Source: a virus (Duplodnaviria; Caudoviricetes). From it: a stretch of DNA of 64,000 bases. The stretch's first letter is position 1. Every line of letters starts with the position of its first letter. A program made the position numbers and the translations under genes. Under the pieces are notes generated by a model, which saw nothing but the letters and a program-made list of their open reading frames with translations, ran no database searches and was not told the origin of the DNA. The stretch covers positions 1 through 64,000 of the IMG/VR virus record IMGVR_UViG_3300028591_000129; one strand, given 5' to 3'. Of the stretch, positions 8,547-47,925 are shown piece by piece.

Positions 8547-8618
8547 ATGCTTTCTCCTTTTATGAGTTTGATTTACTCTTTTATGATAACATAGTAAGTA
8601 CAATTTGTCAAGCAGAGG

Positions 8619-36846: not shown

Positions 36847-38721
36847 TTAACTGTTCTCCGACACCTGTTCAGGTGCTTGCTCTTGAGTATCCTCACTTTG
36901 GGAAGCCTGTTGAGCTATCTTCTGAAGATTAACGGGTTGTGCCTGCTCTTGAGGATTTTCACCCTGCCCCTGTCCTTGCTCTTGTCCCTGACCGTCACGA
37001 ACCTGCTGTCCGAGTGCGGAAGACATCATCATATTGTTCTCGATAGCCTCACGCTTCTCTTCAGCAATCTTATTAAGTGCGTCCTGTGCCTGTGCTTCAG
37101 TCTCACCGAAGTACCACATACGAAGAGCAATACGGCTCTCAAGCCCCTTGTCATACAGCGCCATTCTTGTTGCAAGCTCGCTCTCTTGGTCAATGAGAAT
37201 ACTGTCGTCCCACTCAAAGGATACGTTGTACTTACCCATTTTAGAGGTATCCGCAACTCTCTTGCCGTCTTTATCCACATACTTAATATCGTCTACGATA
37301 TTGTACAGCGTGCAGTAAACGTTCATTGCGTATACAACGTCTTCAAGGGCAACCTGCAATGCGTTCTGTATCTCTCTGTTAGCCGAGAATGAACGCTGTC
37401 TTAATATCTTAATCTCCGTAGCCGTACGCGCCTCGTGTGCCACGTCAGAGATAGTACCACGGCTCATTGCACATACGTCCTCAATACGCATAAGAATGTT
37501 ATTGAGACCATTGATAAGTGACGTATCACGAAGAGACGGGGAGAACGGTCTGTATGTGTCAGATTCACCAAGGTCGATTTGTCTGTAAAGTCTCTTTTGG
37601 TGCTTCGGCATTACAGAGTTTCCACCGCCGTTATCGTTGTTCATAAACTCAAGCGCGTCACGGTCAATATCAATTGCAAGCTCACCGCCCTCAAACTCCC
37701 ATATAAGTCTTGAGTACTGTTCGTCAGCGTCTCTGATAAGGTCTCTTGCACGACCAAAACCGCTCATACCAAGCGGGGAATGAGGGTCAATGATATTTGC
37801 TTCGGGCATTTTGAAGTAACCGAAGAGCAGTCTGTCTACGTTCTTGATAGTTACCGCCTGCGGTATATCTTTCCACTCGGGGACTTCCGTTAACGGTATC
37901 TGTGCGCCCAAAGAAACATTTCCGATACTCTGATTGTCAGGCGCGTTTTTCTGCTTAAATGCGTAGTTCTCGATATGCACATTTCCACCTGTAAGCTTAT
38001 GTCTCTCAAGGCGCGTAAATGTCGTATCTCCGTCTACCTTTGTCTGTATAAATGCAACGTCACTCAAGTTGCCCGAACCGTCAAATGAGATAGGGTAGAA
38101 ACAGTCTGCCTGAATGAAATCAAACTCCATAAAGTACTTGTATGTCTCTTCCGTCTCGGTTTGTTGGTCTTTTGCGACGCCTGCTACACCGCTTACCTTG
38201 GTGCGGACAACATACGGCTTGATAATCAGGCTTCCCTTTGCGATACCATACTCAAGCTGTGCACGTATCTTTGATATGAGCTTCTTTTGATACTGCTCGT
38301 TCATATAGTCAGCACGCTTTGTGTCGCCGTCTACGGTCTCCTGCACGACGGTCTTGGACTGTCCGCTTACACGAATATTGCCGAACGCGTCAGCTTGAGG
38401 CGGGAAGTAATTAGGATTTTCCACTCTCTCGGAAGACGTAGGTGCTGTAATCTCAGATTTAAGTTCAAGCACCGCCATACGAGCTTTCTCACTCGCAATA
38501 AACGCGGGAAGTCCCATAGAAACTACTCGCGTCGGGTCGTCTAACGTAGGCTCTCTTAACCATTCAGCCTCATTTCGATACATTGCATCCCATTCTTCAA
38601 TGGCATTGACCATCTTGTCACTTACAGCAGGTGTAACGTGCAAGGTTTCCTCGATTTTTTGATTATATCCAAGCATTCTTGAGAAAAACTCCTTTATCTT
38701 ATCCCAAACAGAAGAGAACAT
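36847..38721 (-). CDS. Portal protein (A118/SPP1-like)
   Basis: SPLGMSGF, YSRLIWEFEGG, TATEIK, SFEWDDSI. Confidence 0.9.
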   Translation of the reverse strand: MFSSVWDKIKEFFSRMLGYNQKIEETLHVTPAVSDKMVNAIEEWDAMYRNEAEWLREPTLDDPTRVVSMGLPAFIASEKARMAVLELKSEITAPTSSERVENPNYFPPQADAFGNIRVSGQSKTVVQETVDGDTKRADYMNEQYQKKLISKIRAQLEYGIAKGSLIIKPYVVRTKVSGVAGVAKDQQTETEETYKYFMEFDFIQADCFYPISFDGSGNLSDVAFIQTKVDGDTTFTRLERHKLTGGNVHIENYAFKQKNAPDNQSIGNVSLGAQIPLTEVPEWKDIPQAVTIKNVDRLLFGYFKMPEANIIDPHSPLGMSGFGRARDLIRDADEQYSRLIWEFEGGELAIDIDRDALEFMNNDNGGGNSVMPKHQKRLYRQIDLGESDTYRPFSPSLRDTSLINGLNNILMRIEDVCAMSRGTISDVAHEARTATEIKILRQRSFSANREIQNALQVALEDVVYAMNVYCTLYNIVDDIKYVDKDGKRVADTSKMGKYNVSFEWDDSILIDQESELATRMALYDKGLESRIALRMWYFGETEAQAQDALNKIAEEKREAIENNMMMSSALGQQVRDGQGQEQGQGQGENPQEQAQPVNLQKIAQQASQSEDTQEQAPEQVSENS

Positions 38722-38862: not shown

Positions 38863-39099
38863 TCAATAATCGACTATCATTATCCGTATGAACGGTTCTC
38901 CTTTGTCGTCCTTGTCTGACGATATACCAAAGACTTTCTTATCCATAAGGGCTTCGATAACGGTAGCGTCATACGCGTTAGCACCGTCCACGTATGTCAC
39001 AAAGGTTAACGTGTCCCCTGACCGTGCACTCACTAACTGTATACGCTCAAACTGACTGATTACTTTCGGAATTAGGTTCTTCAGTTTCATTGTGCTCAC
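38863..39099 (-). CDS. Hypothetical protein
   Basis: ORF with SD in minus-strand operon. Confidence 0.55.
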   Translation of the reverse strand: MSTMKLKNLIPKVISQFERIQLVSARSGDTLTFVTYVDGANAYDATVIEALMDKKVFGISSDKDDKGEPFIRIMIVDY

Positions 39100-39735: not shown

Positions 39736-41321
39736 TCTCCTTGATTAAAATGTCATACTCTCTCGGGTGCACGTTGATAGCTTCTCTTACGCAATGCACC
39801 ACGTATACCGCAGGACGGTCAACTCTTGTGAGTGTCTCAACTGACACAACCTTGTCCCTTCCCATATCATTTGACCCGCGAATTAACTGATTTACGAATT
39901 CAAGTACTGTCGGATTTTCCATATCAGTCTTCCCCCTTTTATGATTATTCCTTGACAAACTGCTTACCGTTGATTGTAACTATAAGCCCGTCTTCCCGCA
40001 TTGCGTTGATATACGCATTAACCCAATCTTTAGGTGTCTCTCCGTCTTCCAAATCGACTACGGTCTTTGCATATACAAGCATTTCCTTTTTGAATTGTGT
40101 CAATGTCTGCATTTTCAGTCTTCCCCCTGTGCTAACGCTTCAAGTATTCCCTCACAGAACTCGTCAATGAAGTGGATGCCCTCTTCAGTGCCCTCTCCAT
40201 ACTTCGTGACGTTCGGGAAGTCTCCTGTACCCTCAAGGTACATAATGACCAAGCCGTCCTCGTCAAAGATAATGCTGTCCTTGGACTTTGCAGTCGTGTT
40301 CTGAAGAGCCCAAAGGCGCAACATAGCATTTCCAAGACCACTCAATGTCTTGTCAATTTTGCCTGTCTTTCTGTTAAACCTTACGCAATAAGTCTTCTTA
40401 AGTTCCATTTTAGTTTCTCCTTTGTATGAGTTTTTGATTTGTACCCTTATGGTATCACGGTAGTAATTACTTGTCAAGCGACATTTTCTACCCACTTGAA
40501 TTCACCCCGCTCGTAGAAATATGGCTGATGGGTAAGCTCCCATTTCATTGTGACCATATAGGCGGTATATCCGTTAGCCATAAGCCCGATAGCCACGTCC
40601 TCTGCCATATCCTTGCTGAATGCCTTGGGGCTCTTTTCCTTATCCCACTCGGCGTTATGCTTGGGCAGAATATCTGTTACGAACACTGCACCGTATGCGG
40701 TGCAAACCAACACGTAATAATAGTTCTTCTTTGCCATTGTCTTACTCTCCTTTATGTGTACTTACATTCCTTAAGCTGTCTGATATTCCAACGGATATTC
40801 TTGGCTTCGTTCTTGGCGTACTTAAGCTCACGCTTCCAATACACTTTCCACTCTTCGTCAGTCTCGACAGCAAGCACTTCCTCGTACCTCTTAATGTCTC
40901 TCTTCCAAATGGCAAGGATTTCTTTCTGCTTGTCAATCTGTCTGTCGACGTCTTCGTTCCAAATAACCTGCGCTTCAGTCAGGTCGTTATTTACGAGCTT
41001 CTTACCGTACTCGTAAATCTTATCCTTGGGTATGTCAGAATTCATATACATAACCTCAAGGTCTTTGAATACCTGAAAATTCTGTGCAGTGTCTCTGCAA
41101 CCCGTACCTGCAATAAATTCTTCGTATAACATTGATTACACCCCCTCACGTTTAACTGAAATTACCTTGTACTTGTCTTCGTGCTCGTGCAAAATCCGCA
41201 CGACACGGTGATAATCCTCATATGTGTATGACGTGTGCTCTCGCGCATATCCGCCAAAGGGCTCTTTGTACAGCCACACATATCTAATCGTGATAGGCTT
41301 GCGCATTTTCTTTTCTTCCAT
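39728..41321 (-). other. Run of small hypothetical ORFs behind two TTGACA promoters
   Basis: ORFs 39728.., 40115.., 40474..40737, 40752..41132, 41136..41321 with SD sites and ACTCATA leaders. Confidence 0.6.
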
Positions 41322-41427
41322 ATCTGTTTCTCCTTTCTATGAGTTTCTATTTGCACTTATAAGGTAACATAGTAAGTATAGTTTGTCAAGCATAAATTTA
41401 GGACAGCTTTTGACTGCCCTAAAAGTC

Positions 41428-41544
41428 TTACTTTTTCTTTTTGCTTTCCTTGTACTTCTTAATCTCGCTCGGCTTGGGCGCAGGGCGCTTCTTTACGAGT
41501 TTTACAGGGTTAAGCAGGTCTCGATTTTCGATTCTCTTTGTCAT
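41428..41544 (-). CDS. 38-aa Lys-rich peptide E (follows the JAB-like gene)
   Basis: MTKRIENRDLLNPVKLVKKRPAPK...; SD GAGGTG at upstream stop. Confidence 0.65.
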   Translation of the reverse strand: MTKRIENRDLLNPVKLVKKRPAPKPSEIKKYKESKKKK

Positions 41545-41549
41545 TTTAA

Positions 41550-42299
41550 TCACCTCTCTAATCCGTATGTGTATCCGTACTTGCCTTGGTTCTCTAACAG
41601 CCAATTGTGAGCATTTATATGTGCCACATTGTTTATCCTGTTCAACTGTGCCACGCAATTGTTATATGCTTGGTCGTTCTGTGTGGCGTACTCGGCGCGA
41701 CTTATCTCACCTCGCACGCACCTATTCCACAACTCCCTTGATAACGCCCTATATTCTCGTGTTATCGGTGACGCTTGTGCACTTGCTGACCTGCTATTCT
41801 CACGTATAAAGTGTGCATAGTCATTAGCAAACGCAACTGCACTTGCGCGGTCAGCAATCATTGCGGGCGACTTGGTTATGCTGTAAGTGCCCTCGGAAGC
41901 AACTGCACGAAATGAAGATATATTGAACCTTGCCCAATTGTTAATATCTGCGTCGCTGAATGTGCCACCAAGTTCGTCACTTGAGTAGCCTGACCTCGGG
42001 TGGATATGTGAAAAATAATCACCATTGATAAATGCTCGTACAGACGACTTAACAGCGCCCTTACCGCCTCTACGTTCCTCAAGCACCGTTCCGTCAGCAG
42101 TTACTACCATACCAAATTCTATCTTGGCGTTCTTACGCTTACTCTCAAACTCTTGTATGCTCCTTGGCATTACGGGGCTTCCGCTATCCGCACTGTATAC
42201 GAGCGGAATATCAACGGTAATCTGACCTCTTGCGCCAAGGTCAACGTCCGTTACGCCTATCGAACGGCTGTTATTATTGTCACTTCCCGAGCTTCCCAT
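41550..42299 (-). CDS. JAB/MPN-like metalloenzyme effector
   Basis: KIEFGMVV...SHIHP...GTFSDAD matches E...HxH...SxxD; starts MGSSG. Confidence 0.7.
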   Translation of the reverse strand: MGSSGSDNNNSRSIGVTDVDLGARGQITVDIPLVYSADSGSPVMPRSIQEFESKRKNAKIEFGMVVTADGTVLEERRGGKGAVKSSVRAFINGDYFSHIHPRSGYSSDELGGTFSDADINNWARFNISSFRAVASEGTYSITKSPAMIADRASAVAFANDYAHFIRENSRSASAQASPITREYRALSRELWNRCVRGEISRAEYATQNDQAYNNCVAQLNRINNVAHINAHNWLLENQGKYGYTYGLER

Positions 42300-42314
42300 T
42301 AGCTTCTTCTCCTG

Positions 42315-42452
42315 TCACTTCTTACTGTTAAGCTTCTTCTTAAGTGCATTGACTGCCTTTGTATTCTTTGTGTTCTTAACAGGATTGTTTGTGTCATTGT
42401 CCGTAGCGACAAACCTCATTTTTGCGTTGTTGTCTCTCTTTGTTCTCGGCAC
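42315..42452 (-). CDS. 45-aa Lys-rich peptide D (RFVAT type)
   Basis: GTG start after AAAGGGGGG; MPRTKRDNNAKMRFVATD... Confidence 0.65.
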   Translation of the reverse strand: MPRTKRDNNAKMRFVATDNDTNNPVKNTKNTKAVNALKKKLNSKK

Positions 42453-42469
42453 TTTCAATTCCCCCCTTT

Positions 42470-43207
42470 TTATAAGATTACGTCTATCTCCAAGTACGCC
42501 GCGTTCTCGCCTCTTGCTGTTGACCACTCACGTACTATCCTCGCGTCACCCGTGAAGTTATAGTGCTGATTTCTCTGCACAAGTACCTCGTGTTCTGCGT
42601 GATTGTTCGTCATTATCGCACCCGTACCCTGTTGGACTACTACCCTAAATCGTACAGGGTATGCGTCGAATGTTCCGTGCCCCTTTGTGTATGTCAGTGA
42701 CGTATATGCACGCTGTGTATAGTCCGTTGACTGCAACACATCTCGAAGTGCACTGCTCATACTCGGGTCTGACGCCATTGCCACTTTAAGCCTGCCAAGC
42801 TCGCTCTCGCTTAATCCGAGTATACGAGAAGCTGACCTCAATGACACGTACCTGTACGCTAACAAGTCCTCTGACATAGGCTTCATACCGTTGTCTATCT
42901 GTGCTATGTCCCGCTTAATGTCGCTCTCGCTGTACCCCAAACGTGTCCAATCACTGTCAGGACTTCCGACCTTGCCTGTGTTCAGATAATAGTTAATATC
43001 GAATGCCTTTGAGGTCTTTACATACACCTTTTTACGGGACGGTGCGTCAGGGTCACCTGCTTCATAGCCTGTCTGACCCATATCATTCTGCAACCTGCGC
43101 ACTTCCTCACGCTGTTCCGACCTTGTAAGCCCCTCTAAATTGGTAGCTTCCTCGAACGGGTCGCGCTCCGAAGCGGTGTTTGTTATACGTTCCCCTCGAC
43201 TGCCCAT
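42470..43207 (-). CDS. ADP-ribosyltransferase-like effector ART4 (ExE)
   Basis: AYR, AYTSLT, EHEVLVQRN; starts MGSRG. Confidence 0.8.
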   Translation of the reverse strand: MGSRGERITNTASERDPFEEATNLEGLTRSEQREEVRRLQNDMGQTGYEAGDPDAPSRKKVYVKTSKAFDINYYLNTGKVGSPDSDWTRLGYSESDIKRDIAQIDNGMKPMSEDLLAYRYVSLRSASRILGLSESELGRLKVAMASDPSMSSALRDVLQSTDYTQRAYTSLTYTKGHGTFDAYPVRFRVVVQQGTGAIMTNNHAEHEVLVQRNQHYNFTGDARIVREWSTARGENAAYLEIDVIL

Positions 43208-43211
43208 TCGA

Positions 43212-43349
43212 TTACTTCTTCACAATCTTAAGCAGACCGTTAGGCATTTTCTCGAACTTCTCGTCAGGCTTAAGCATTCTGCCATATGCAGGTGCGTCAA
43301 ATCCCGACTTCTTTTTTGCGTTCTTCTTCGCTGTCTTCTTGTTAGCCAT
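43212..43349 (-). CDS. 45-aa Lys-rich peptide C (SGFDAPAYG type)
   Basis: MANKKTAKKNAKKKSGFDAPAYG...; own promoter and SD. Confidence 0.75.
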   Translation of the reverse strand: MANKKTAKKNAKKKSGFDAPAYGRMLKPDEKFEKMPNGLLKIVKK

Positions 43350-43380
43350 TACCTTAACCCCTTTCGTGTTGTTTGAGTAT

Positions 43381-43409
43381 ATACTAACATAGTAAGTATA
43401 ATTTGTCAA
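43381..43409 (-). promoter_or_regulatory. sigma-A promoter for peptide C
   Basis: TTGACA-17 bp-TAGTAT with TG extension. Confidence 0.7.
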
Positions 43410-43411
43410 CA

Positions 43412-44170
43412 TTAGCTATAATCGTGCTCGATACGTCTGACGACTTCAAGTACAACACGATACTCGGCGCGTCCGTGTGCTCTTCCGCTACCGCCTACGC
43501 GCTCATATGATACAGGCATAAGAATAAGGTCTCTGTTTAACATAAACTCGCGTTGTCTGTCGCCGTAGTAAGAATTAACGTCGTCGTTACCTAACCACAT
43601 ACCGTAGCCTGTGCCCGACGGAACTCTAATCTCGTACTCAATCTGCTTGTTACTTCCGATTGTGAGACCCTCACGTGCCGCACCCGTAGACATATTACCT
43701 CTTGAATATATTTCCTGTCCTATCATACGCTGTATATCCTCTTCCGTTGCTGTCCTGTTTCCTTTTCCCAACAATAACTCAGCCGTTGCACGACGGTGTA
43801 CCACAAAAGGGGTATTAATCGTTGAACGGTCAAGGTACTTATCGTATATCCGAGTGGCGTCTTGGTCTTCCTTGTCCATTTTACTGAAACCCTCGTACTG
43901 CTGTCCGTCCATAAAATGACCATATACCCAAGTGTGGTCAAATGCTAACCACTCGTCACGGTCTTTATTTATCTCGTCATAAAGCTCTTGGGCATTACTA
44001 TGCTCCAAGAACCAACGATTAGTCGCGCCCCCGTCACGCTCATAATTATGCGTATCCGAGTGCCGACTATCGAATGTTTTATATTCGTCCTTGTCCTTGC
44101 GTCTTACAGGCAGTTCACCGCCCGATACTGCGCCTGTGCTCCCCGCAGAAACTCTTCCTGTACTTCCCAC
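43412..44170 (-). CDS. ADP-ribosyltransferase-like effector ART3 (QxE)
   Basis: VHRR, GNMSTG, QREFMLNRD; starts MGSTG. Confidence 0.8.
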   Translation of the reverse strand: MGSTGRVSAGSTGAVSGGELPVRRKDKDEYKTFDSRHSDTHNYERDGGATNRWFLEHSNAQELYDEINKDRDEWLAFDHTWVYGHFMDGQQYEGFSKMDKEDQDATRIYDKYLDRSTINTPFVVHRRATAELLLGKGNRTATEEDIQRMIGQEIYSRGNMSTGAAREGLTIGSNKQIEYEIRVPSGTGYGMWLGNDDVNSYYGDRQREFMLNRDLILMPVSYERVGGSGRAHGRAEYRVVLEVVRRIEHDYS

Positions 44171-44195
44171 GGCTAATTCTCCTTACACCAAATGC

Positions 44196-44357
44196 TTATT
44201 TCTTTGCTCCCTTGGGTGGTATCATTCTGTATGTTCCGTCGGGAAGCTTCTTGTATGTTGTTCCCTTGGGTACGATTTCACCGTAAGCGGGTGCGTCGAA
44301 ACCGCTCTTTCTCTCTGTTGCCTTTGTGTTCTTCTTTGTTGTTTTCTTATTTGCCAT
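44196..44357 (-). CDS. 53-aa Lys-rich peptide B (SGFDAPAYG type; not in ORF track)
   Basis: Hand-translated MANKKTTKKNTKATERKSGFDAPAYGEIVPKGTTYKKLPDGTYRMIPPKGAKK; SD AAGGAGG. Confidence 0.75.
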   Translation of the reverse strand: MANKKTTKKNTKATERKSGFDAPAYGEIVPKGTTYKKLPDGTYRMIPPKGAKK

Positions 44358-44387
44358 TTTTAGTTCCTCCTTGTATTGTTTGAGTAT

Positions 44388-44416
44388 ATACTAACATAGT
44401 AAGTATAGTTTGTCAA
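44388..44416 (-). promoter_or_regulatory. sigma-A promoter for peptide B
   Basis: TTGACA-17 bp-TAGTAT, nearly identical to the promoter at 43381. Confidence 0.7.
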
Positions 44417-44419
44417 CTA

Positions 44420-45175
44420 TTAATCGTAATTATGTGGCTGTCTGCCTATATACTCAAGAATTACACGATATTCAGGCGCGGTATCCCACGTCCTATCTTC
44501 AATATCTTGCCTCTCACTTTGTGATATACGCTCATAACCAACTATACGATATGCAGTGTCTCTATTCAGCATAAATTCACGTTGTTGGTCTCCCCAAGTA
44601 GGGTTTACACTATTGTGTCCTATATACATTCCTGCACCAACAGAGCCCGCAGGGATACGGATAGTATAGTCAATAGGCTTGGAAGCGCCTCTTCCGATAG
44701 TAAGTCCGTCTGCCGCTGCTCCCGTAGACATATTACCGAGAGATATGACCTCATTACCTACTGCATTACGCAACATTTCTTCAGTAACACTGCGTCTGCC
44801 CTCTCCGAATAATAACTCGGGCGTAGCTCGTCTATGTACTTCAACGCCCTCATTAATGACGGAACGGTCAAGAATATTATCGTAAATACGCGTGTATGTC
44901 TGTCTTGTGTCGTCCATATCAGAGAACTTGCCATACTGTTGACCGCCCATAAAATGACCACGTTCCCAATAGTCAAACGCGTTCAAATGCGCCCTCACCT
45001 CGGGGTATAACTCTTCAACATTAGAATTTTGTTCAAACCAACGGTAGGTTGCACCTCGGTCACTTTCATAATTATGTGTGCCCTCTGCTTCCCACTTAAA
45101 TTGGTGGTACTTGCCGTCACTTGCACCCGCAAGCATTCGACTTCCCTTATTTTCGTTACCCCCTGTGCTTCCCAC
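44420..45175 (-). CDS. ADP-ribosyltransferase-like effector ART2 (QxE), paralog of ART3
   Basis: VHRR, GNMSTG, QREFMLNRD; starts MGSTG. Confidence 0.8.
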   Translation of the reverse strand: MGSTGGNENKGSRMLAGASDGKYHQFKWEAEGTHNYESDRGATYRWFEQNSNVEELYPEVRAHLNAFDYWERGHFMGGQQYGKFSDMDDTRQTYTRIYDNILDRSVINEGVEVHRRATPELLFGEGRRSVTEEMLRNAVGNEVISLGNMSTGAAADGLTIGRGASKPIDYTIRIPAGSVGAGMYIGHNSVNPTWGDQQREFMLNRDTAYRIVGYERISQSERQDIEDRTWDTAPEYRVILEYIGRQPHNYD

Positions 45176-45200
45176 GGCTAATTCTCCTTATCCTGACTAA

Positions 45201-45305
45201 TTACTTCTTCTCGGGCTTCTTCTTTCCCTTGGTAATTGTCATTCCTTTGCCTGTTGCAACAAAGCGAGCTTTTGCTTTCTTTGTATCTTCCTTGATATTT
45301 GCCAT
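45201..45305 (-). CDS. 34-aa Lys-rich peptide A (RFVAT type; not in ORF track)
   Basis: Hand-translated MANIKEDTKKAKARFVATGKGMTITKGKKKPEKK; SD AAAGGGG. Confidence 0.7.
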   Translation of the reverse strand: MANIKEDTKKAKARFVATGKGMTITKGKKKPEKK

Positions 45306-45334
45306 TTCCGACTTCCCCTTTCTCGTTTTCTTAC

Positions 45335-45362
45335 ATTATATCACGGTAATTACTACTGTCAA
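45335..45362 (-). promoter_or_regulatory. sigma-A promoter for peptide A
   Basis: TTGACA-16 bp-TATAAT with TG extension; -35 overlaps the ART1 stop codon. Confidence 0.7.
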
Positions 45363-46057
45363 GGCACTGTCTCTACGGATATAATCAACTGTCTTCCGTC
45401 GGCGGACACTTGTATATCATTAATGCCATAACCGACATTACGGGACAGCACGCACTCCGATTCCATTCCTGTCGGACTGAATATGGCGGGTGTACCCGCT
45501 TTTGCGTCGATATTTATGCGTACTCTACGATACGAGAACTCCGAATCGGTCAAGGACGTGTCATATGTTGTTGACATATATGCGTGCTCACGCACAAAGT
45601 CACCAAGAAGCACCCTGCGAAGCTCTGCTACGTCATTTTCGTCGAACTTTCTAAAGCCTTTTGAGGCGTCCATAAGGCGTCCTCTCACGTCGTCGTCCAA
45701 CTCTGCCCCACCGTTCGTTATCAAATTCTCTAAATAGCCATTATCCGCCATTCGGACTAACTCAATATCTTTGTTGAGTGGAAGCATACTTTTGTCCATT
45801 GCGTCTATCGTCCTGTATGCCTCTGCAAGCTCGTCCTCGTCACCATATTCAAGCTCAAGTGACGCGCGTACGCTTATTCCGTCGGCTACCGCGTCTCGTA
45901 ATGCGCCGTTAATCTTCCACGAGTTTGCAGACTGAAAATAGCCCGAGTTATATATGCCTGACCTGTGCACCATATGTGTAAAGTCGTCGGGGTTTATCTT
46001 CGTATAATGTGTATCTACGTCCGAGTAGTTATCTTTGCTACCGCCTGAACTGCCCAT
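45359..46057 (-). CDS. ADP-ribosyltransferase-like effector ART1 (ExE)
   Basis: LVR, AYMSTT, ESECVLSRN; start reassigned to MGSSG (TAATG overlap with upstream ORF). Confidence 0.82.
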   Translation of the reverse strand: MGSSGGSKDNYSDVDTHYTKINPDDFTHMVHRSGIYNSGYFQSANSWKINGALRDAVADGISVRASLELEYGDEDELAEAYRTIDAMDKSMLPLNKDIELVRMADNGYLENLITNGGAELDDDVRGRLMDASKGFRKFDENDVAELRRVLLGDFVREHAYMSTTYDTSLTDSEFSYRRVRINIDAKAGTPAIFSPTGMESECVLSRNVGYGINDIQVSADGRQLIISVETVP

Positions 46058-46206
46058 TATCTCTTTTTCCTTTTTCGCTCTGTCCAACCGCTCTCTTCGA
46101 TAGCCTTGCCTTGCGCTTCAGCTTTCCTACGGGCATTTTTGGCGCGATAGACTTTGCCCGTCGTACCCCATTGGTATCCGTCTTTACCGACCTTATGAAC
46201 AGGCAT
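46057..46206 (-). CDS. 49-aa basic protein (not in ORF track)
   Basis: Hand-translated MPVHKVGKDGYQWGTTGKVYRAKNARRKAEAQGKAIEESGWTERKRKKR; SD GAGGT. Confidence 0.7.
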   Translation of the reverse strand: MPVHKVGKDGYQWGTTGKVYRAKNARRKAEAQGKAIEESGWTERKRKKR

Positions 46207-46211
46207 AGCGA

Positions 46212-46361
46212 TTACCTCTTCTTATCCTTGACAATCATATGACGTCCGTTGACCGTTACCCAACGCTCGCCTTTCTTAAGCTGACTGTCAATCTTGTCGA
46301 AGCTTGCTCTCTCCTTGGCTGTGACCTTATGCGGTCTCGGTGCGCTCTTCTTCTTCGCCAT
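46212..46361 (-). CDS. 49-aa basic protein (not in ORF track)
   Basis: Hand-translated MAKKKSAPRPHKVTAKERASFDKIDSQLKKGERWVTVNGRHMIVKDKKR; SD GGGAG. Confidence 0.65.
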   Translation of the reverse strand: MAKKKSAPRPHKVTAKERASFDKIDSQLKKGERWVTVNGRHMIVKDKKR

Positions 46362-46416
46362 AATGTTCTATCTCCCATTATCCTGTCGAGGGCTTATTCA
46401 CTTATCAGTATAACAT

Positions 46417-46448
46417 AAAAGTGCCTCAAGCGAACTCAAGGCACTTTA
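46417..46448 (-). terminator. Intrinsic terminator after the TROVE-like gene
   Basis: AAAGTGCCT / AGGCACTTT inverted repeat with T-run. Confidence 0.65.
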
Positions 46449-46452
46449 TATC

Positions 46453-47925
46453 TCACGCTGTTATGTCCTTATACCTGTCAGACGCAAGAATTTCATTCAT
46501 AACGTCCAACGGTGTCTTCCCCAAGTTATCCATTACCTGCTTCATAATGTTCGGTGAGTATCCTGACACGAGGGACACGCAACTGTCCGACATAGACGCG
46601 TGGTAAGTAGGGTTGACCGCATTCACGTTCCAATAGATAACGTGAGGCAGTCTGTACCCTGCACGCTCGTACTCACCGCGTACGACGTCAGTGAACGTCA
46701 TAAAGCCGTCACTATCACAGCCACGGACACAGTCTACCTGCATATCGGATATGACACAGATAGCTTCAGGCATTTCGTCAGGGTCGATATGATACTTAAC
46801 GCCTATCTCAAGTATCCTGTCAAAGACAGCCTTGAGGTTAGTGGAATTACCCCACTCGGAACGATGTACGTCTTCGTACATTTGCCCAAGCGTCTCACCT
46901 TTAATCTCTTTGAGCGTAGGTGTGCTTGAGAAAGTAAAGAACTTGTCCTTGAACTCACCGACGTTGTTCTGTGCGAAGTAGATACCAAGAGAGATAGCAA
47001 CCGTGAGCGGTGACATACCGCCACGCCCCCAAGTCATTGAGCCTGAAGTATCCACGACGGCAAGGGCTCTTGTCGTGACCTTGGGTAACTGTGCCCACAT
47101 AGTGTTTATCTCGACAGAGTTATCACCCTTGACCACTTTCTGCATAATGTCACACGGATTAGCCGTCGCCATATTCATTTTGGCGTCACCTGTCTTGACC
47201 TTGGAAATGTACGCGGTGTATCTTTCCCCGTCGTGCCTCTTGAACGCTTCCCTGTTCTGCACGTTACACTTTGAGGGGACTGTCTCGTAGTCAATCTCGC
47301 CCCAACGGTTCGTGGACATTTTAGCTTCAGGGGTGTCTATCGCTTTTCTCAAGGCAACAAGGGCTTTCCTGTACACTGACATAGTCTTAAAGGAATACCC
47401 TAACTTCTTGGCTGTAAGCTTACCTAACTCTGCTGTCTTCTTTGAGGACGCATTCGGTGTGGCAAGCCACTTCGAGAGCAAGGATACAGGCTTGCCCTCC
47501 GCGAGGTTATGCAAGTCTCTGCGGTACTGACAGGCAATGAAGTCCCACATAGCGTTCTCGGCAGGTGTCCCTATGAGACTGTACAAGTCTTTAGCTCGAC
47601 CAAACTCAAGCACGTTGGGAATGTTCTTGACGACGCTGTCAGTATGCGTCTCCGCCAAGTGAGCGAAAATCTGATTAAAGGCGTCTCTCTCCCCAAGCCC
47701 GCCACGAATGTCACGGGCATAGAACAACAGCTTCATAGCACTGTCCTTATCTTCCTTATACGCCTCGTCGAACAGGTCACATTTAGCGTACGCAGACGCC
47801 CCGCGAAGAGCGCCCACTCTCCCAAGGAAGTCAAGACACCTGTTCGAAGTAGACGTAAGGCAGTCAGCCCCATTCCACGTCTTGCCGTGTGTCAGTTCAA
47901 TGTTAAACGCGTCAGAAAAATTCAT
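46453..47925 (-). CDS. TROVE-like helical domain plus vWA protein (DUF2828-type)
   Basis: TWNGA...CLDF, LFYARDIRGGLGER, SLLSKW, MIDAS DTSGSM, TNL, ISDMQ, YWNV, VSGYSP. Confidence 0.85.
   Translation of the reverse strand: MNFSDAFNIELTHGKTWNGADCLTSTSNRCLDFLGRVGALRGASAYAKCDLFDEAYKEDKDSAMKLLFYARDIRGGLGERDAFNQIFAHLAETHTDSVVKNIPNVLEFGRAKDLYSLIGTPAENAMWDFIACQYRRDLHNLAEGKPVSLLSKWLATPNASSKKTAELGKLTAKKLGYSFKTMSVYRKALVALRKAIDTPEAKMSTNRWGEIDYETVPSKCNVQNREAFKRHDGERYTAYISKVKTGDAKMNMATANPCDIMQKVVKGDNSVEINTMWAQLPKVTTRALAVVDTSGSMTWGRGGMSPLTVAISLGIYFAQNNVGEFKDKFFTFSSTPTLKEIKGETLGQMYEDVHRSEWGNSTNLKAVFDRILEIGVKYHIDPDEMPEAICVISDMQVDCVRGCDSDGFMTFTDVVRGEYERAGYRLPHVIYWNVNAVNPTYHASMSDSCVSLVSGYSPNIMKQVMDNLGKTPLDVMNEILASDRYKDITA

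Follow-up and report, generated by a model that had tools for sequence, protein, structure and literature searches.

Why would a phage place a gene for a very small basic peptide directly behind each of five tandem enzyme genes? The question is raised by a member of the Caudoviricetes (IMG/VR virus record IMGVR_UViG_3300028591_000129), whose record spans 104,810 bp and of which the first 64 kb (64,000 nucleotides, here called the window) was analysed. Between positions 41,428 and 46,057, the window carries four genes for ADP-ribosyltransferases (ARTs), numbered ART1 to ART4 from low to high coordinates, and one gene for a JAB/MPN-like putative metallohydrolase. These enzymes are 232-252 amino acids (aa) long, and each is followed by an open reading frame (ORF) for a Lys-rich peptide of 34-53 aa (pepC to pepG). 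An initial annotation, made from the sequence alone, had read the locus as a phage polymorphic effector array whose very small basic peptides are cognate inhibitors or chaperones of the enzymes; the pairing of enzymes and peptides across phages and a structural model of ART3 with pepD support this reading. We consider it likely that the array comprises five phage effector/micro-immunity cassettes, a MuF-less variant of the MuF polymorphic toxin-immunity modules, among which Bxa-Bsi is the closest tested case. The peptides themselves are probably cognate inhibitors that bind the active sites of the effectors.

Pairing of enzymes and peptides across phages

In the window, a Shine-Dalgarno (SD) sequence lies at normal spacing before every peptide ORF, and the Lys-rich ORF that had been reported directly after each of the five enzymes was found in all cases with a good ribosome-binding site. 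The initial annotation had also held that the peptide motif pairs with the type of the upstream enzyme and that this pairing is not random. Since duplication history might account for the window by itself, 44 related viral loci (L numbers below) were collected from IMG/VR with four family alignments; for the ART3 locus, a single-protein query gave nothing and an alignment-based query succeeded. Enzymes were classed by hidden Markov models, the K-rich ORF directly downstream was read, and loci were de-duplicated.

The pairing recurs in these diverged phages. The motif SGFxAP follows eight of the nine QxE-type ARTs that have a downstream K-rich peptide, and it follows no other enzyme family. The motif RF(V/T/I) occurs only after ART1-family (7/10) and ART4-family (4/10) genes, ERIT only after distant relatives of ART4, and CGG only after JAB-like genes (7/17, in seven distinct loci besides the window). 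The initial annotation had suggested that the conserved Arg of RFVAT, beside Arg-type enzymes, could be a decoy substrate; in one relative, L027, Lys takes its place. The mutual information between enzyme family and peptide motif is 0.83, a value that 200,000 shuffles of the labels never reached; since the loci are related by descent, the shuffle test overstates their independence and its result is not a true probability. Co-variation of ART subtype and peptide motif across related phages, which had been proposed as a check, is thus present in this sample.

Could the small ORFs be generic basic DNA-binding proteins, or not partners at all, with a pairing that simply mirrors the boundaries of tandem duplications? 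Within the window, ART3-pepD and ART2-pepE can be explained by a single tandem duplication. The peptides are also of low complexity, and in PHROG only pepG among the five that follow an enzyme has a match, a marginal one (phrog_288, E 0.068). Across phages, however, the pairing is kept between enzymes that are only 30-45% identical and in arrays that differ in membership. Every peptide has a good SD sequence and a conserved motif, and the complex model described below is strong against controls of 0.00-0.01. This account of the peptides is therefore very improbable.

That enzyme and peptide form a functional pair is argued from three features of the relatives. The gene after the peptide varies (another effector, a portal gene, TerS or a head-tail gene); in L002, the stop of the enzyme gene and the start of the peptide gene overlap by 1 nt; and in L003 (6563-6721), an SGFEAP peptide lies upstream of its QxE ART. 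Because the latter peptide still stays beside its ART, the pairing is kept though the order flips; this is the sole inversion of order seen. Two other arrangements were considered and rejected. Each peptide might belong with the downstream gene, since in the window it ends 4-25 nt before the next start and lies behind a promoter; across phages, however, the family of a peptide goes with that of the enzyme upstream, and arrays close with a peptide that precedes TerS, the portal gene or other unrelated genes. Enzyme and peptide might instead be joined as a polyprotein, by frameshifting or by read-through; stop codons, SD-bearing spacers and separate starts are conserved.

In the related loci, the peptides measure 32-60 aa, and Lys-rich tails are common to all of their families whatever the enzyme. 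Pfam holds no family for any of the seven small ORFs of the locus (pepA to pepG), and pepB is the only one with a solid match in PHROG. Searches of Pfam and PHROG detected no DNA-binding domain in the peptides, and a comparison of pepD with the Protein Atlas was uninformative (scores 0.77).

The enzymes and a modelled active-site complex

On sequence evidence, ART1 to ART4 are C3/VIP2-type (R-S-E) ADP-ribosyltransferases with an intact triad. The signature R / S-T / (Q/E)xE, on which the initial annotation had based its assignment of four ARTs, is borne out by matches to Pfam, PHROG and PDB profiles and by the conservation of the catalytic residues. Against PF03496, which has a curated cut-off of 23.4 bits, ART4 (45.0 bits), ART1 (42.4) and ART2 (24.0) score above the cut-off, and ART3 falls just below it (21.7 bits). 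The family profile of ART3 matches Certhrax (2.8e-6) and C3stau2 (9e-4), and the solved toxins matched by the ART family profiles include C3, Vip2, Certhrax, iota and CdtA. The residues follow the order Arg, S-T-S/T and (Q/E)xE expected for R-S-E ARTs. In the metagenomic family alignments, R115, S150-T and Q198-R-E200 of ART3 are invariant, and R102, S162-T-T and E199-S-E201 of ART4 are invariant or nearly so (at least 90%). For ART1, R119, S170 and E205-H-E207 are conserved at 90% or more, with E205 and E207 invariant. The division into a QxE group (ART2, ART3) and an ExE group (ART1, ART4), also made earlier, agrees with both the family alignments and the identities. ART2 and ART3 are 48% identical, and ART4 is 27% identical to ART1 over 129 aa (E 7e-6), whereas ART4 and ART3, taken from the two groups, have nothing in common but an N-terminal tag.

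The fifth enzyme can be described with moderate support, from motif and fold, as a JAB/MPN-like putative metallohydrolase. Its motif E61...H98xH100...S115xxD118 is invariant in 40 aligned homologues, and the C-terminus YGYTY(G/T)LER, which reads YGYTYGLER in the window, is invariant or nearly so in the same alignment. The spacing from HxH to S is 14 residues in the window protein and about 10 in most homologues; the classical spacing is 7. An AlphaFold model with a predicted local distance difference test (pLDDT) of 93.5 has an alpha/beta core, into which a long helical hairpin is inserted at 151-236. The top Foldseek matches in the PDB are all JAB/MPN proteins (Rpn11, STAMBPL1, PfJAMM1, RadC, BRCC36 and Cap3; E 0.02-0.6), the best by probability being PfJAMM1 (prob 0.98, E 0.03). 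PfJAMM1 also ranked first among 48,161 representative chains in a search independent of Foldseek, with Z 5.9, a root-mean-square deviation of 3.5 and 106 aligned residues; the match is modest, as Z is under 8 and thus below the level that excludes a common arrangement. The earlier assignment of this gene to JAB/MPN thus has moderate support from motif and fold. No JAB model of Pfam matches any of 40 family members at E up to 1.

The JAB-like family comprises at least 280 metagenomic proteins without any Pfam domain, and a profile search found no sequence match to it in the PDB. The nearest named clusters in the Protein Atlas include Toxin-JAB1 at 0.84, which is only a lead, and the model also matches several MuF 'minor capsid protein' fusions in BFVD. 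JAB-like domains occur in addition within larger proteins of 478-819 aa (L017:11-3325, L019:3542-6001, L021:4888-6822, L022 and L023), some of them beside MuF genes. In L017, L022 and L023, the peptides behind these large proteins end in (V)KPKYGxPP(K)K and represent another peptide family.

One of the five pairs, ART3 (10-row alignment) with pepD (7-row alignment), was modelled as a complex in three runs with 3 controls. The pair scored 0.84 (runs 0.81-0.86) and the controls 0.00-0.01, with a best value of 0.01. The score mark is reached by 58 of 80 solved complexes and by 2 of 110 mismatched pairs, counts that are rough for the own alignments used here. The runs have at least 89% of their contacts in common, and the pLDDT of the partner is at least 66. 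On pepD, the confident interface comprises residues 16-29, which hold the SGFDAPAYG block, and residues 38-45. On ART3, it comprises W70-Y81, R115, A117-G125, N141-S150, Q198 and E200, and thus the catalytic Arg, the S-T motif and QxE. The model supports binding of pepD in the NAD/substrate cleft of ART3, and for this pair the initial prediction of a conserved peptide motif in the catalytic cleft is borne out (0.84 against 0.01). We know of no related ART-peptide complex, and the model may still have passed through a memorised structure.

The geometry of this model also bears on whether the peptides are adaptors or chaperones. On that view, the motif would hold the enzyme while the Lys tails anchor it to DNA, or inside the capsid, for packaging and ejection, and silencing would be at most a side effect. 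Lys-rich tails are present at both ends in every peptide family, whatever the enzyme; the Lys-rich ends of pepD fall outside the modelled interface (residues 16-45); and the loci adjoin packaging genes. Yet the modelled contact reaches the catalytic R, S and QxE, as inhibition demands; an adaptor would have no need of it. In L004, moreover, the peptide follows a MuF-fused ART that already has a packaging domain, and the tested analogue Bsi is an inhibitor (PMC11699363). An adaptor role is on balance unlikely, and inhibition at the active site is the reading that we retain.

A shared N-terminal tag and related toxin systems

All five array enzymes begin MGS[S/T/R]G. Among all ORFs of the 104,810-bp genome, a start of the form MG[SRGN][STGR][GR] is found in the five array genes only. 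The codon usage of the tag differs among the five copies; therefore, constraint acts on the protein. Other phages have their own tag on unrelated enzymes: MGRGSSKAGG on four genes of L009, MGGRGSKGAKSMATP in L015, MAKPTRGG in L020, MKQR(I/L)GGKV in L018, MAG(G/S)KGGRGG in L014 and MGATG in L030. The tagged enzymes include a zincin (HEMGH) in L006. Since the tag differs between phages yet is common to unrelated enzymes within one, it follows the phage, and the peptide follows the enzyme.

Other arrays with tagged effectors, mostly each with its own K-rich peptide, are located at L006:8970-9623, L009:3432-7324, L015:4958-8438 and L020:5082-9874. A further effector family in L002, L006 and L009 is paired with D(Y/F)DR(W/F) peptides. 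The effector repertoire is much wider than ART and JAB.

Several observations point to a link with virion assembly. Arrays in relatives are usually wedged between ParB/DUF4417-type genes and a TerS, TerL or portal gene. In L004, a MuF protein ends in the QxE ART, the two being joined without a tag, and an SGFAAP peptide follows. Three homologues (P0034, P0146 and P0176), one each from the JAB-like, ART1 and ART4 families, carry a propeptide of the L27/Prp type directly before a GGRG tag; it reads (M)LNLQFF or LDIQFF. At such a motif, the host protease Prp cleaves ribosomal protein L27 as well as capsid and scaffold proteins of the staphylococcal phage 80alpha (PMC5744158). As a lead from three sequences, Prp cleavage would leave the tag as the mature N-terminus, as Met removal would elsewhere. 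The tag may be a virion-loading or processing address, a proposal that we hold at somewhat short of an even chance. A myristoylation-like MGxxxS signal was rejected as a reading of the tag; its occurrence is inconsistent, and the organisms in question are bacteria.

In the mechanism that we propose, a phage-specific N-terminal tag (MGSxG here) would open each enzyme, the enzymes being four NAD-dependent ARTs (two ExE, two QxE) and one JAB/MPN-like metallohydrolase. The central conserved motif of the peptide would sit in the catalytic cleft of its enzyme and silence it in the producing cell, and the Lys-rich tails may serve some shared second role, e.g., nucleic-acid binding or instability. The tag would probably replace MuF as the address into the virion or assembly pathway, with delivery to the next host as the outcome. 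Inhibition, toxicity, targets and packaging are features that we infer. If the model is right, few natural protein inhibitors of ADP-ribosyltransferases, or of a JAB-like enzyme, would be as small as these peptides. Recognition of an enzyme via a motif of about 10 residues would, if true, offer useful specific tools and a clean system for toxin-immunity co-evolution, and the tag offers a testable candidate for a signal of virion loading or processing, very short beside the MuF domain of roughly 300 aa that it would replace. The cassettes are common in rumen and gut viral contigs, and the JAB-like family (280 homologues) and the peptides are without a Pfam family; a sizeable block of phage 'dark matter' would thereby be labelled.

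A broader proposal, tentative and rather doubtful as a whole, is that gut Firmicutes phages possess an undescribed, widespread cassette grammar. Here, a tag exposed by Met removal or Prp-type cleavage would direct interchangeable enzymes into the virion, a micro-immunity peptide of 30-60 aa would plug each active site, and the Lys tail would couple release or degradation to DNA ejection. If this were true, MuF-free, mix-and-match arrays of injected effectors would be a general phage weapon system, and the peptides would be a new class of minimal enzyme inhibitors.

Among known systems, the MuF toxins come closest, and tested members include, besides Bxa, Apk2 with Tis1/Aph1. Like the effectors here, MuF toxins are phage-encoded and have interchangeable toxin domains, among which ARTs are common, beside portal or terminase genes (in the relatives, in the present case). 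MuF polymorphic toxins of temperate phages have small downstream immunity ORFs (Jamet 2017, PMC5576092), and the MuF-ART Bxa is neutralised both by the small protein Bsi, which binds Bxa and is modelled in its active site, and by the hydrolase BAH (PMC11699363). Each of the five cassettes similarly consists of a variable toxin domain and then a small cognate ORF, and the product of one, pepD, is modelled as occluding the active site of its enzyme. In the L004 relative, a true MuF-ART fusion precedes a member of the same peptide family. Both systems may also include a second, enzymatic immunity as an option, namely BAH there and a Macro-domain gene here: in L034 (5815-6312), L035 (4710-5207) and L036 (5814-6311), a 165-aa Macro-domain-like protein without a tag follows an ART and peptide cassette. 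Judged by its motif, this protein is a candidate for a second, ADP-ribose-removing immunity parallel to the BAH of the Bxa system.

Unlike MuF toxins, the array effectors are stand-alone genes of about 240 aa that lack an N-terminal MuF domain and have in its place a phage-specific tag of 5-15 aa, 5 aa in the window. Up to five cassettes stand in tandem, and in three of the five cassettes of the window phage a promoter separates enzyme and peptide. The partners measure 32-60 aa and have Lys-rich tails, whereas those of MuF toxins are folded proteins of roughly 90-150 aa. The initial annotation had stated that no described system has such a layout. This needs amending for the logic of the cassettes, to which MuF toxins and Bxa-Bsi/BAH are close. 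It stands for the tag, the micro-peptides, the Lys tails and the multi-cassette array: in the related literature found (PMC5576092, PMC11699363, PMC5512222, PMC9503650), a tag in place of MuF, Lys-tailed partners of 32-60 residues, tandem arrays and promoters between enzyme and peptide are not described.

The same effector repertoire (ART, JAB/RadC-like, zincin), tied to head genes and with injection alongside the DNA as its proposed route, is found in the polyvalent proteins of phages and conjugative elements (Iyer 2017, PMC5512222) and in head-associated phage ARTs (Iyer 2022, PMC9503650). Polyvalent proteins, however, are giant single polypeptides of 2-15 domains, and immunity partners are not their feature, whereas here every effector is encoded by its own gene, bears a tag and is paired with a cognate peptide.

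Partner-controlled enzymes are also familiar from type II toxin-antitoxin systems, in which an enzyme is neutralised when a small partner of labile appearance binds it directly, as is proposed here; the promoter layout of the window likewise favours an excess of the partner. In the array, however, the partner lies downstream (except in L003) rather than first, has no DNA-binding autoregulatory fold, and belongs to a morphogenesis region in which the enzymes share an N-terminal tag. Phage ARTs that act against host machinery include Alt, ModA and ModB of T4; the paralogues modA and modB lie side by side, and packaging of Alt relies on an N-terminal capsid-targeting sequence (partly after PMC9503650). 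No sequence relationship to the T4 enzymes is detectable beyond the ART superfamily, and T4 is without cognate peptides. The T4 targeting sequence is cleaved by a prohead protease; in the window phage, none was identified.

Promoters, layout and genome setting

Three sigma-70-type promoters with an extended -10 TG are located exactly between ART4 and pepC, between ART3 and pepD, and between ART2 and pepE (Table 1). Thus, pepC, pepD and pepE are each served by their own promoter as well as by read-through, and their cognate upstream enzymes are not; a promoter at this place would favour an excess of the peptide over its enzyme. A 25-nt promoter element, TTGACAAAYTATACTTACTATGTTA, is present in the window in five copies with no more than 3 mismatches, where 0 are expected. 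It seems to represent a promoter family specific to this phage and reused before several cassettes. The cassettes of most relatives lack promoters of their own; a TerS, TerL or portal gene follows them directly.

Transcripts were sought in run X4, a sheep-gut RNA library of an independent study. Within 41000-47000, its contigs at 41535-41730, 42203-42463, 43070-43281, 44110-44345, 44347-44497 and 44992-45310 are 100% identical to the window. Cover is complete for pepC, pepD and pepF and partial for pepE and pepG; in every case but pepG it also includes the start of the next gene. This is a weak hint that the region is transcribed; the contigs show neither level nor strand, and carry-over of DNA is possible. 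The bodies of the ART genes are uncovered by these contigs, a lack of cover that allows no conclusion.

These data are relevant to a further explanation: like ModA and ModB of T4, the enzymes might be ARTs for early takeover of the host, produced in the infected cell rather than packaged. The peptides would then act as pseudo-substrates, as subunits for regulation or targeting, or as timers whose degradation or titration frees each enzyme at a fixed time. Such a role fits the terminators that flank the array, the host-type promoters inside it (three, all perfect or nearly so), the lack of MuF in the genome and, as a weak hint, the RNA-library contigs over peptide genes. It also fits the pairing of ExE enzymes with peptides whose RF motif includes a conserved basic residue. 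It agrees poorly with the cassettes of most relatives, which are promoterless and directly precede TerS, TerL or portal genes, and with the fusion of homologous domains to MuF; a phage-specific shared tag would also have no obvious role. We therefore regard host takeover by unpackaged enzymes as improbable and prefer effector/immunity cassettes.

Against the latter weigh, besides the shared ancestry of the loci and the modest JAB match, several further points. Searches for PF04233, PF06152 or related domains found no MuF across the whole 104.8-kb genome, and no partner of the tag was identified. The strong host-type promoters, together with a portal gene that lies beyond seven small ORFs and a terminator, suggest early expression more than co-expression with head genes. 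A peptide bound in the cleft could also be a substrate or pseudo-substrate, which the model cannot tell from an inhibitor. Furthermore, pepG is without the CGG motif of most JAB-associated peptides, and for immunity proteins a length of 34-53 aa and low-complexity Lys tails are unusual.

Table 1. Coordinates of the array and of adjoining features in the window
Feature	Position	Strand	Evidence or remark
DUF2828 + DUF7788 protein, 490 aa	46453-47925	-	phrog_850 'RNA-binding protein', E 1e-116; directly upstream of array, closed by a strong terminator
Hairpin terminator	46418-46447	-	13-bp stem, then T-run; ends DUF2828/TROVE-like gene; upper array boundary
pepA, 49-aa basic ORF, motif RWVTVNGRHMIV	46212-46361	-	Sequence read; no Pfam or PHROG match; not an effector partner
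pepB, 49-aa basic ORF	46057-46206	-	phrog_31267, E 2.1e-6; conserved small phage protein family
ART4, ExE-type C3/VIP2-like ART, 232 aa, tag MGSSG	45359-46057	-	PF03496 1e-11; phrog_3895 1.3e-10; C3stau2 (1ojq) 7.4e-15
Promoter TTGACA-16-TATAAT, extended TG	45335-45362	-	12/12 consensus positions; -35 box overlaps ART4 stop codon
pepC, 34 aa, AKARFVATGKG, ART4 cognate peptide	45201-45305	-	AKERFV(A/S)(T/S/N)GxG peptides after ART4-family genes in L037, L038, L039, L040
ART3, QxE-type ART, 251 aa, GTG start, tag (M)GSTG	44420-45175	-	PF03496 1.4e-4; family profile against Certhrax 2.8e-6
Promoter TTGACA-17-TAGTAT with TG	44388-44416	-	Includes copy of the five-times-repeated 25-nt element
pepD, 53 aa, KSGFDAPAYG, ART3 cognate peptide	44196-44357	-	Complex model and family alignment
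ART2, QxE-type ART, 252 aa, GTG start	43412-44170	-	PF03496 2.8e-5; 48% identical to ART3
Promoter TTGACA-17-TAGTAT with TG	43381-43409	-	Includes copy of the 25-nt element
pepE, 45 aa, KSGFDAPAYG, ART2 cognate peptide	43212-43349	-	Sequence read and family alignment
ART1, ExE-type ART, 245 aa, tag MGSRG	42470-43207	-	PF03496 6.5e-11; family profile against Vip2 3.2e-6
pepF, 45 aa, NNAKMRFVAT, ART1 cognate peptide	42315-42452	-	GTG start behind strong SD; (N)AxxRF(V/T/I) peptides after ART1-family genes in L026-L031
JAB/MPN-like putative metallohydrolase, 249 aa, tag MGSSG	41550-42299	-	Invariant motif and structure model
pepG, 38-aa Lys-rich peptide after JAB-like gene	41428-41544	-	Sequence read
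Hairpin terminator	41397-41423	-	Lower array boundary
25-nt element copies	184-208, 8587-8611, 41365-41389, 43385-43409, 44392-44416	-	Repeat search of window
Seven small ORFs, 55-208 aa	38863-41321	-	Separate array from portal gene
Portal gene	36847-38721		PHROG match

The genes are all on the minus strand. The true start of ART4 is the ATG of MGSSGG, which overlaps the pepB stop by 1 nt. Upstream of the array are the DUF2828/DUF7788 (TROVE/vWA-like) gene and an FtsK-like gene. Downstream, PHROG matches outline a siphovirus-like structural module with portal, scaffold, major head protein and a 1757-aa tape measure. The portal gene of the window phage is 2.7 kb downstream of the array, past the seven small ORFs, which form a separate promoter-to-portal unit. 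Six of these seven, searched together with the 78-aa ORF at 38863-39099, have no PHROG match, nor has that 78-aa ORF or the 208-aa ORF.

The window DNA is present in full in one sheep-gut metagenome run, which may be its source, and partly in bovine-gut runs. The phage is taken to be a rumen phage, and Clostridia of the rumen or gut are likely as hosts. In the bovine-gut relative X2, most of ART4 (about 45447-46032) has no cover at a likeness of at least 85%, which is left uninterpreted. Among 50,697 records of isolated phages, no matches were obtained by blastn with the region or by tblastn with ART3 and the JAB-like protein.

The two basic ORFs at the upper end of the array also have counterparts in relatives. 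A pepA-like motif, W(V/I)T(I/T)xGxH(I/V)FI, forms an N-terminal extension of some ART4-family proteins (P0173, P0186) and is present on small proteins adjoining TerS/TerL in L015 and L037-L040, and pepB homologues are located near TerS/TerL in L037-L040. Perhaps pepA and pepB represent small virion proteins or another type of N-terminal module.

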